From: a virus
Virus record (IMG/VR): IMGVR_UViG_3300035671_000001
Location: 18,506-82,505 of that record
Length of the DNA stretch: 64,000 nt
Reading direction: 5' to 3' (one strand)
The translations under genes were made by a program, and so were the position numbers. The notes below the pieces were generated by a model. It had not been told where the DNA came from. It was given only the letters and a program-made list of their open reading frames with translations, and searched no databases. Positions 3,565-6,274 of the stretch are shown one piece after another (position 1 is the first letter of the stretch; every line of letters begins with the position of its first letter).

Positions 3565-4353
3565 ATGACAGACGTTGCAGCAGTCCAAGCCTTAACGCGT
3601 GATCTACGAAACGCCGCCGCGACAATGACGCGAGACGAAGCGCGATTCCTCGTTGATGCGTATTACATCATTCAAGACGATCGGAAGCGATCGGCCAACC
3701 AAGTGCGTTCTATGAAGGAGGAGCCACACGCCGTCCTTCAGTGGTTCTTCGATCAGAACGTCACGCTTGAAGGACAAATCAAGCGCGCCCTCGATTCGTA
3801 TTCCGACGCCAGCAAGATCGGCCTTTGGATGAAAGGAGTTTACGGAATCGGCCCGGTGATCGCGGCCGGGCTGCTCGCGCATATTGAGATCGACGACAGC
3901 ACTCCAACCGTGGGTCACATCTGGCGCTTTGCCGGACTTGATCCGACGGTGAAGTGGGAGAAGGGCCAGAAGCGGCCGTGGAATACTCAGCTCAAGACGC
4001 TGTGCTGGCACATCGGGCAGAGCTTCATGAAATTCTCAGGCCGCGACGAATGCCGCTATGGTAAGTTCTACCTTGCCCGGAAAAAGTTTGAAGTCGAGCG
4101 CAACGACTCAGGCGAGAACGCTGAGCTGGCGAAGACGCTGTTGCCGAAGTTCAACAAGAGCACCGACGCATACAAACATCTGCTCGGTGGGAAGCTGCCG
4201 CCGGCACAGATCGATGGGCGTGCACGTCGGTGGGCGGTGAAGCTTTTTCTCTCCCACATGCATGCTCAGTGGTTTAGATTGGAATTGGGCAAGGAGCCCC
4301 CCAAGCCATACGCGATTACGCAGCTCGGACATGGACACATGATTGAGCCATAG
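3565..4353 (+). CDS. tasA: TasA-like Nop-domain RNA-guided DNA-binding protein (related to the IS110 C-terminal domain, no nuclease)
   Basis: Predicted helical N-terminus; GIGPVIAAGLL and IWRFAGLDP motifs; ARRWAVKLFL; no DEDD/RuvC domain, no catalytic SG after GLDP, no HNH; embedded in a 36-nt dual-repeat array. Confidence 0.82.
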   Translation: MTDVAAVQALTRDLRNAAATMTRDEARFLVDAYYIIQDDRKRSANQVRSMKEEPHAVLQWFFDQNVTLEGQIKRALDSYSDASKIGLWMKGVYGIGPVIAAGLLAHIEIDDSTPTVGHIWRFAGLDPTVKWEKGQKRPWNTQLKTLCWHIGQSFMKFSGRDECRYGKFYLARKKFEVERNDSGENAELAKTLLPKFNKSTDAYKHLLGGKLPPAQIDGRARRWAVKLFLSHMHAQWFRLELGKEPPKPYAITQLGHGHMIEP

Positions 4354-6274
4354 GGTTTGAGAGCACCATCGAAGTCGAGCGAGCCACACGGACAGAGAGC
4401 ACCACGATCATGGAGCGAGCCACGGACCTAGAGAGCACCACATAGGCGGAGCGAGCCAGAACACTTGAGAGCATCACGCGTGAGGAGCGAGCCAGACGAG
4501 ACGAGAGCATCATCCTCGATGAGCGAGCCACTGCGGCTGACTGTACCTATAGGAACGAGCGAGCCATTCTACACGAGAGTACCAAGCGAGCCGAGCGTTT
4601 CAGCCATGTAGAACGACAGCATCAGAGCCGAAGAGCGAGCCATGGGAGATGAGAGCACCACGTTGACAAAGCAAGCCATGATCTTTGAGAGCACCAAGCG
4701 AGCCGAGCGTTAAGCCAAGGAGCAAGAGTGCACCACATTGTGCGAGCGAGCCAGAAAACGCGAGAGTACCAAGGCTAGAGAGCGAGCCAAACCGTAAGAG
4801 AGCACCACAAAAAGCGAGCGAGCCGAGGGAGCTGAGAGTACCATATATGAGGAGCGAGCCATAAAGCGCGAGAGCACCATCCTCGACGTGCGAGCCATGC
4901 TCACTGAGAGTACCAAAATGAGCGAGCGAGCCAGAGCCCAAGAGAGCACCATCTGCTCAGAGCGTAGCCAAATGAGCAGAGTCGTACCAACATAGGAGAG
5001 CGTAGCCAAGATCGACGAGCGTACCCTGTCGGAGGAGCGAGCCAAAGACGATGAGAGCACCATGGTGAATGAGCGTAGCCACAAGACAGGACAGCATCAT
5101 GCGATTTGAGCGAGCCACTTCCCAAGAGAGTACCAAGCGAGCCGTGCGAGCCATGGGTAGCGACAGCACCATATGAAGAGAGCGAGCCACCGTTGATGAG
5201 AGCGCCATGCCAAGCGAGCGAGCCACAGAACTTGCGAGTACCATGTCGTAGGAGCGAGCCAGCGGTAACGAGAGTACCATGGCGACGGAGCGAGTCATCG
5301 CCGCAGAGAGCACCACACGAAGTAAGCGAGCCAATGCGCGTCGAGAGTACCAAATAAGATGAGCGAGCCATGCAGGACGAGAGCACCATCACGCCAGAGC
5401 GCAGCCACAGCCACAGAGAGCACCATCGCTTAAGAGCGAGCCTTACCAGACGAGAGTACCCTACGATCAGAGCGAGCCAAGTCACAGGAGAGCACCAAGC
5501 AAGGAGAGCGAGCCAGGGCGAGAGAGAGCACCACTACGCGCGAGCGAGCCACGGCGATTGTGAGTACCACGAAAAATGAGCGAGCCTTGTAAGAGGAGTG
5601 CACCAAATCATATGAGCGAGCCTTCGGCCGGGTGAGTACCATTGAACATGAGCGAGCCGGAAAACGCGAGAGTACCAAAAAGCGTGAGCGAACCAATGAC
5701 GAAGAGAGTACCAAAAGGAATAAGTGAGCCAGGGTGTGAGAGAGTACCAAGCGGGCCGAGCGTAGCCATCGGCAGGGAGCGTGCCATATGATCAGAGCGC
5801 TAGCCACGTATGATGAGAGCACCAAGCGCAGTGAGCGAGCCAGTAGCCAAGGGAGCACCAAGTCGGCCGAGCGTTTCAGCCATGCTGATGGAGTTGCACC
5901 ACATCAGACGAGCGAGCCTTCCCGCCGGAGAGTACCAAGCAAGCTGAGTGAGCCGTGAAGTCTGAGAGCACCATATCGGCGGAGCGAGCCACGCCGAACG
6001 ACAGTACCAAACCCGCCGAGCGAGCCAACGCGATCGAGAGTACCAAGCTGACCGCGCGAGCCATCGACCGCGAGAGCACCATTGCGCATGAGCGAGCCAC
6101 GTCGATCGAGAGGACCAAACCACAAGAGCGAGCCAACCAGCGCGAGAGCACCAGATCGCCGGAGCGAGCCATACCGTTTGAGAGCACCACAGAAGCTGAG
6201 CGAGCCTGCGCAGTAGAGAGCACCAACGCAAGAGAGTGAGCCACCCACGATGAGAGTACCACGCCCCGTGAGCG
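4345..6274 (+). ncRNA. TIGR-like dual-spacer guide array, downstream block (53 units)
   Basis: Same alternating GAGCG(N0-4)AGCC / GAGAGYACC repeats with 9-nt variable spacers; parsed unit by unit. Confidence 0.92.

Follow-up and report, generated by a model that had tools for sequence, protein, structure and literature searches.

A TIGR-TasA guide in a soil phage spells a silently different version of the neighbouring tas 3′ end

In described TIGR systems, spacer A of a guide pairs with one of the target's two strands and spacer B with the other, and cleavage leaves 8-nucleotide (nt) 3′ overhangs (Faure et al. 2025, PMC12045711). The natural targets of TIGR arrays and the origin of their spacers are both stated to be undetermined (Faure et al. 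2025, PMC12045711; Xu et al. 2026, bioRxiv 10.64898/2026.09.09.750476). Here we analyse a TIGR-TasA system of the dual-repeat kind that Faure et al. 2025 (PMC12045711) define, in a 64,000-nt stretch of a soil phage, positions 18,506 to 82,505 of the 82.5-kb IMG/VR virus record IMGVR_UViG_3300035671_000001. We call this whole stretch the window; coordinates prefixed L190 belong to the same phage genome, and the phage itself is also labelled G000. The tas gene sits between two arrays, with about 12 guide units upstream and about 53 downstream, and among the downstream guides is one that reproduces the final codons of that same tas gene with two silent differences. This locus differs from published dual-repeat TIGR-TasA systems in that several guides can be assigned to neighbouring genes, tas included, whose resident copies are silently mismatched. 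The assignment is made by position, and these guides provide in-genome evidence on the natural targets of TIGR systems and on spacer acquisition.

The guide in question, guide 2, belongs to the second unit of the downstream array, which is laid out as edge repeat (4377–4386), spacer A (4387–4394, CACGGACA), loop repeat (4395–4404), spacer B (4405–4412, CGATCATG) and edge repeat (4413–4422). Since 3′ overhangs arise solely if one strand of the target reads spacer A followed by the reverse complement of spacer B, this rule is the correct one, and by it guide 2 predicts CACGGACACATGATCG. Lying 42 nt upstream of this unit, the resident tas 3′ end reads CATGGACACATGATTG, a match at 14 of 16 positions. 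Position 4330, where the site begins, is a first codon position of the tas open reading frame (ORF). The two mismatches, at 4332 (CAT/CAC, His) and 4344 (ATT/ATC, Ile), fall on third codon positions, and both versions encode HGHMIE. On pairing they would appear as rC·dA at position 3 of spacer A and as an rG·dT wobble at position 2 of spacer B. That the differences are all silent in the tas frame is as expected if guide 2 spells another functional allele of the same codons.

An earlier, sequence-only reading of this stretch had aligned the unit at 4386–4412 with window 4329–4346 (ACATGGACACATGATTGA); the sequence and spacers were as it gave them, and both internal mismatches are indeed synonymous. 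Its count of 15 matches in 18 is correct for 9-nt spacers, but each of these takes in the invariant A that closes the CCA of the repeat. Since the third mismatch (position 18) is a repeat-derived letter, the informative comparison is that of the 16 variable positions. The same reading took the match as independent support for the geometry, and the wider analysis bears this out. The proximity and silent-mismatch signals described below are confined to spacer A plus the reverse complement of spacer B, read in the edge–A–loop–B phase, and vanish in the controls, three wrong geometries and the wrong phase, which yielded no such near-sites. The opposite-strand rule is thus confirmed for a native TasA system with 8 + 8-nt guides.

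A 14/16 match somewhere in the genome is by itself uninformative, since the real guides give 9 hits with at most two mismatches and permuted spacer pairs give 6.7 ± 2.3. Within 200 nt of the guide's own unit, there are 2 hits with at most two mismatches, against null means of 0.01–0.05 for the whole genome. Over the same distance, 4 guides have a site with at most three mismatches, against null means of 0.07–0.14, and none of 2000 permutations reached 4. These four linked pairs, guide 2 and three siblings, carry 2–3 mismatches each and 10 in total. Nine of the 10 are silent, compared with 24% of 20,119 chance-hit mismatches (P = 2e-5) and 22.5% of the mismatches in the same four guides' distant hits; among chance hits with two mismatches, both are silent in 20 of 498 (4%). 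Two-sided neutral drift from a common sequence predicts 29% silent differences, against the 9 of 10 seen (P = 1.2e-4). Thus, the 16 unconstrained guide positions have been held fixed, and the few silent positions of the genes have changed. The significance of the silent-only pattern lies here: guide sequences are constant, and resident sites differ from them. Codon preference gives no direction to the change, the resident codon being the less preferred one in 5 of the 9 silent differences. Taken together, these counts confirm that chance does not account for the relation between guide 2 and the tas 3′ end.

The three siblings are linked to a RecE-like gene, a small gene and a DUF3150-like gene (Table 1), and the sibling sites with 3 mismatches include the central position A5 among them. 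Guides and near-sites lie 42–211 nt apart, with the guide on either side of its site. Each of the two solitary units in the genome follows the gene in which its own near-site lies, placed after that gene's stop codon and before its terminator hairpin. Two weaker cases, with 4 and 5 mismatches and one amino-acid change each, flank the gene at L190:386-1195. A separate observation concerns L190:1364-1425, where two neighbouring, near-duplicate units, CGACAGTT/GATCATCC and CGACACTA/GATCATTC, both resemble the last codons of the upstream gene (GDTTMI). The second, with 4 mismatches of which 3 are silent, spells GDTRMI, and the first would spell GDSWMI; the two may be guides against different alleles of one site.

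Table 1. Coordinates of the tas locus and of the linked guides and near-cognate sites (window coordinates unless prefixed L190)
Feature	Position	Strand	Guide–site distance	Description
tas gene	3565..4353	+		ORF; 262 amino acids; by its sequence a nuclease-free TasA with a Nop domain only
Upstream TIGR array	3118..3560	+		~12 units; first units overlap the 3′ end of ORF 2113-3204
Downstream TIGR array	4341..6275	+		~53 units of 36 nt; final edge repeat 3′-truncated, GAGCG
Resident near-cognate site CATGGACACATGATTG	4330..4345	+		Codons H G H M I E-; lies 8 nt ahead of the stop codon of tas; conserved C-terminal loop
5′-truncated first edge repeat GATTGAGCCA	4341..4350	+		Made of the last tas codons; 5-nt overlap with the near-cognate site
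Guide unit 1	4351..4376	+		A = TAGGGTTT (with the stop codon of tas inside it), loop, B = TCGAAGTC
Guide unit 2 plus the edge repeat on either side	4377..4422	+		All three repeats perfect consensus
Guide 2 and tas 3′ end			42 nt	2 mismatches, both silent
Guide L190:3552-3577 and RecE-like gene			83 nt	
Guide L190:7744-7769 and small gene			193 nt	
Guide window 14342-14367 and DUF3150-like gene			87 nt	3 mismatches, all silent
Solitary guide unit	14332..14372	+		A = CTGCCTCG, B = AAGAACGA; between the stop codon of the DUF3150-like gene and the terminator hairpin
Near-cognate site of the DUF3150-like gene	14240..14255	+	87 nt	Upstream of the guide; KNDEAA in both versions

Relatives of the phage help to interpret these pairs. 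The RecE-linked guide (L190:3552-3577) encodes EIWMPD, and the resident RecE-like gene encodes EIWLPD. The homologous site in the RecE gene of phage G001 (the IMG/VR record behind L200) encodes EIWMPD and lies 2 silent mismatches from the guide. G001 is a complete, syntenic phage of 75.7 kb that has terminal repeats but lacks both tas and TIGR units, and at 40031–42507 it carries the upstream protein and the RecE-like exonuclease in the same order (54% and 75% identity). Thus, at least one guide spells an allele type that is present in TIGR-less relatives. Eight IMG/VR homologs of the DUF3150-like gene likewise have the terminator and no unit downstream. Since neither G001 nor these eight loci hold units, the units are insertions relative to TIGR-less relatives. 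The alleles of G001 and of the eight DUF3150 homolog loci differ from the guides by 2 to at least 4 mismatches, and none is perfect.

The protein encoded between the two arrays is, by its sequence, a Tas-type Nop homolog without a RuvC or HNH domain, and so a TasA, neither TasR nor TasH. A public gene call starts it at Met21, which gives 242 amino acids. Against Pfam it has a weak match to Transposase_20 (IS110-type) alone and to no nuclease family, and among PHROGs it matches PHROG 4285 (E = 2.5e-44). A profile of the family (34 homologs) finds TaTasR (9mty, E = 2.4e-18) and SpTasH (E = 2.5e-12), with weaker matches to the IS621 and ISCro4 transposases. These alignments begin at TasR residue 124 and TasH residue 110, which is past the nuclease domains, and leave fewer than 60 N-terminal residues of the window protein unaligned to TasR or TasH. 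Its C terminus, PKPYAITQLGHGHMIEP, aligns with that of TaTasR and carries Tyr and His residues, and the motif GH[AGV]H[MVYF]I, in which the near-cognate site falls and which likewise aligns with the TaTasR C terminus, is kept in 120 homologs. Dual-repeat Tas proteins process their tigRNA through a C-terminal Y/H loop (Xu et al. 2026, bioRxiv 10.64898/2026.09.09.750476), to which this motif probably belongs. The Gly of HGH is rare in the family, most homologs having HAH. We also considered the tas 3′ end as a decayed array unit and rejected it: its presumed loop agrees with the loop repeat at 4 of 10 letters, and the peptide is conserved family-wide.

We favour a reading in which close relatives carry a silent variant of the tas/array junction and guide 2 is maintained for binding it, blocking transcription there while the resident junction escapes, and we judge it about evenly balanced between right and wrong. 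The pattern of all four guides suggests the same arrangement more generally, with alleles of close relatives targeted and the phage's own copies spared. We infer the existence of the rival allele, the expression of the guide, its binding and the escape of the resident site. The cognate 16-bp site would be a silent-codon variant of the tas 3′ end in very close relatives, located where tas meets its co-oriented array. Nuclease-free TasA loaded with tigRNA 2 would bind this junction in a co-infecting or resident relative and act there as a transcriptional roadblock, so that neither the codons of the C-terminal tigRNA-processing loop nor the array beyond them would be transcribed in the rival. Such an activity would agree with the RNA-guided repression of transcription found for TasA and dead TasR (bioRxiv 10.64898/2026.09.09.750476). 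The phage's own junction would be spared by its two silent mismatches at A3 (rC·dA) and B2 (rG·dT). ParTasR loses activity with most single mismatches and with all tested double (edge) mismatches (bioRxiv 10.64898/2026.07.30.739390), which makes escape of the resident site plausible; in SpTasH, the central positions are the most mismatch-sensitive. If this reading is true, closely related phages would be using nuclease-free TIGR-TasA as a weapon against one another, in this case possibly against the TIGR system of the rival itself, and the tight linkage of guide and site would suggest a selfish, homing-like spread.

Several results weigh against this reading. The exact 16-nt target of guide 2 has 6 hits in IMG/VR, none of them in a Tas context. 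DNA patterns for the peptide LGHGHMIE gave 14 hits in GTDB genomes and 0 in IMG/VR, and those for HGHMIEP gave 5 hits in IMG/VR, all of them in random contexts. The guides of this phage have no hit with at most one mismatch in four TIGR-less relatives. We also assembled 160 loci with Tas homologs, 105 of them non-redundant, comprising 1508 guide units. Among the ~104 other non-redundant loci, which have the same repeats and about 1400 units, no silent-mismatch site lies near any guide, so that the linked pattern is so far a property of this genome. Across about 84 of the 105 loci, the real geometry gives no excess of hits between loci over control geometries, and none of hits in tas genes either. 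The ParTasR data, moreover, concern cleavage by TasR, and binding by TasA may tolerate transition or wobble mismatches differently. Since one of the two mismatches is a near-terminal G·T wobble, the resident site may still be partly bound. Finally, targeting of competitors alone leaves the 40–200-nt linkage between guide and site unexplained; this linkage would follow either from an origin of the spacers in cis or from selection on linked cassettes of guide and resistant allele.

These searches also bear on the proposal, made in the sequence-only reading, that the system attacks competitors' tas genes as part of a TIGR-versus-TIGR conflict. What survives is that the guide spells a non-resident, silent allele of tas, beyond chance; but none of the tas homologs in the 105 non-redundant loci carries the predicted sequence, the best differing from it by 3 mismatches. 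The wider claim fares worse: with tas hits no commoner in real than in control geometries across about 84 of the 105 loci, a general conflict between TIGR systems is unsupported. Guide 2 keeps the rare Gly codon of HGH, and its target would therefore be the allele of a very close relative, not TIGR systems at large. One protein found with the C-terminal region (P0127, ...LKHGHMIEPP) shares the HGHMIE peptide at the protein level. In a set of 5.8 billion protein clusters, no Tas homolog comes closer than 72% identity, and the collections contain no close relative of the phage, so that the missing allele is weak evidence. For the DUF3150-linked sibling, the exact 16-nt target has 22 hits in IMG/VR, none clearly homologous. 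The sole sequencing run that contains the phage (contigs of soil DNA, its probable source) lists no variant at the sites; 48 differences lie outside those listed, and the run is uninformative on this point.

Other explanations account for parts of the evidence more directly. A guide may record where its spacer came from, the unit having been built from DNA near its insertion point, or from an ancestral or recombined-out allele, and having no current target; the gene would later have changed silently or been replaced by a diverged allele, and so escaped self-binding. We regard such an origin as unlikely. It explains directly why guide and site are always so close, on either side, and why the exact target is found nowhere, neither in the IMG/VR scans nor in the four TIGR-less relatives, and spacer gain in TIGR systems has no established account. 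However, a functionless guide would drift at all 16 positions, against which stands the excess of silent differences over the drift expectation. The sibling guide linked to RecE, moreover, has the Met codon of G001, which the resident gene lacks, and local near-sites are missing from the ~104 related loci.

Self-regulation, which we consider quite unlikely, would have TasA with tigRNA 2 bind its own tas/array junction despite the mismatches and damp transcription of tas and array in a negative feedback, while the solitary guides embedded in 3′ untranslated regions (3′UTRs) would feed back likewise on their host genes. The site does lie exactly at the junction, on the same strand as the guide and upstream of it; the solitary units are similarly placed, between the stop codon and the terminator of the gene bearing the near-site; and TasA represses transcription (bioRxiv 10.64898/2026.09.09.750476). 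One of the mismatches is, in addition, a G·T wobble close to the end of a spacer, and tolerance is greatest for terminal mismatches. Selection for binding should, however, preserve the match, yet at least half of the available silent positions differ, and sibling sites carry 3 mismatches with the central A5 among them. Double mismatches abolished ParTasR activity (bioRxiv 10.64898/2026.07.30.739390), the arrangement is not conserved in the ~104 related loci, and a scan for promoters and terminators found none at the tas/array junction, which is without a promoter-like site. Coincidence, a chance 14/16 match among 89 guides, is very improbable. About 7–9 two-mismatch hits per genome are indeed expected by chance, and the His-Gly-His repeat gives the site slight self-similarity, but hits this close to their own unit are hardly expected anywhere in the genome, fully silent chance hits are rare, and three siblings share a pattern of which the controls show no trace.

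The linkage that targeting of relatives leaves unexplained could be accounted for if each guide unit, together with the silently recoded, resistant site within about 200 nt of it, forms a natural RNA-guided cassette of the toxin–antidote or homing-like kind that spreads as a selfish linked module. We hold this idea to be doubtful, and offer it tentatively. In mixed infections, guide-loaded TasA would disable the unrecoded allele of relatives; where guide 2 hits the tas/array junction, the entire TIGR system of the rival would be disarmed. Survivors would be recombinants that gain the resistant allele and with it the neighbouring guide, so that guides would spread through phage populations. Consistent with such a cassette, each element is tightly linked to its mismatched target allele, at the four distances given in Table 1.

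The freestanding homing endonucleases of T4-like phages, known from intronless homing and marker exclusion, are protein endonucleases that cut DNA. As with these enzymes, the element here adjoins the gene that would be targeted in relatives, the adjacent resident allele is polymorphic and would be resistant, and linkage would spread both. Unlike them, the putative cassette would use a 36-nt RNA guide with a nuclease-free binder acting in trans. TasA lacks a nuclease domain, and whatever effect it had would be exerted by a roadblock or with the help of other enzymes. Synthetic Cleave-and-Rescue and toxin–antidote drives are engineered, Cas9-based and built for diploid eukaryotes. A guide against an essential gene combined with a tightly linked, recoded, resistant copy recalls Cleave-and-Rescue, an analogy in design logic alone.

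Virus-borne mini-CRISPR arrays have been linked to interviral conflicts (Medvedeva et al. 2019, PMC6858448). Like the TIGR arrays of this phage, they are short guide arrays encoded by a virus, and their spacers are reportedly aimed at close relatives of the carrier, which implies superinfection exclusion between related viruses. Mini-CRISPR spacers are reportedly used with the host's Cas machinery, with matching protospacers in co-occurring viruses. Unlike in that system, the effector here is a TasA that the phage itself encodes, exact targets were not found, and each guide is physically linked to the resident, mismatched copy of its target. In all four linked pairs, the carrier's homologous site is mismatched to the guide, with 2–3 mismatches each. 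In four related TIGR-less phages no match with at most one mismatch was found, and about 84 family loci gave no enrichment, the best case being the sibling guide that lies 2 silent mismatches from the RecE gene of G001.

The arrays themselves follow the dual-repeat plan, in which alternating repeats of 8–12 nt and spacers of about 9 nt make up a 36-nt unit next to tas. Two 10-nt repeats alternate, an edge repeat (GAGCGAGCCA) and a loop repeat (GAGAG[CT]ACCA), with 8-nt spacers and a period of 36. Both repeats end in CCA (box C) and begin with GAG, and the base before GAG is variable in both, so that there is no literal UG (box D). That edge and loop repeats share one start is as stated for diverged motifs by Faure et al. 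2025 (PMC12045711). Compared with published dual-repeat TIGR-TasA systems, the 8-nt spacers resemble those of SpTasH, which are also 8 nt long, and the repeats begin with GAG instead of UG. A further difference from those systems is dispersal. There are 89 units in the whole phage genome, some of them in mini-arrays and two of them solitary and distant from tas, and the solitary units and mini-arrays are scattered in 3′UTRs over ~28 kb of the genome. The downstream array matched no Rfam family.

Several smaller observations concern these arrays. Spacer B is AGCGAGCC or AGCGGGCC, near-identical to the edge repeat, in several units (window 4567-4606, 4679-4717, 5118-5153 and 5732-5770), and the edge repeat that follows such units is changed or enlarged (GAGCGTTTCAGCCA, GAGCGTTAAGCCA, GTGCGAGCCA, GAGCGTAGCCA). 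An array of ~10 units on the opposite strand, ~5.5 kb upstream of tas, carries two guide pairs of the main array: ACCAGCGC/GATCGCCG is identical in both, and TGAAGTCT/TATCGGCG differs by one change (window 6136-6161 and 5956-5981 versus L190:12039-12064 and L190:11967-11992, minus strand). The recurrence of these two pairs indicates that guide pairs have been copied from one array to another with their orientation inverted. Of all 4-mers, GATC shows the strongest over-representation in the 178 spacers of the genome (14 occurrences against 3.3 expected from base composition); since it is itself twice as frequent as expected in the phage genome, the excess of spacers over genome is about two-fold, and in the spacers of related loci it is 1.26-fold. 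Where array guides have distant near-hits within genes of the phage itself, we rejected these as targets, because their mismatches are not silent at the protein level and they are as frequent as chance predicts. For example, the guides at window 6028 and 6064, which follow one another in the main array, match one large gene, at 14853-14868 and 15324-15339, with 2 mismatches each; these alter residues (K to N; Y to D and E to K), at a frequency equal to the chance rate. Upstream of tas, the ORF at window 2113-3204 encodes 363 amino acids with many W(x)DPEY-like repeats, and its PHROG matches are all of unknown function. This ORF extends into the upstream TIGR array, so that its last ~30 codons are array units.

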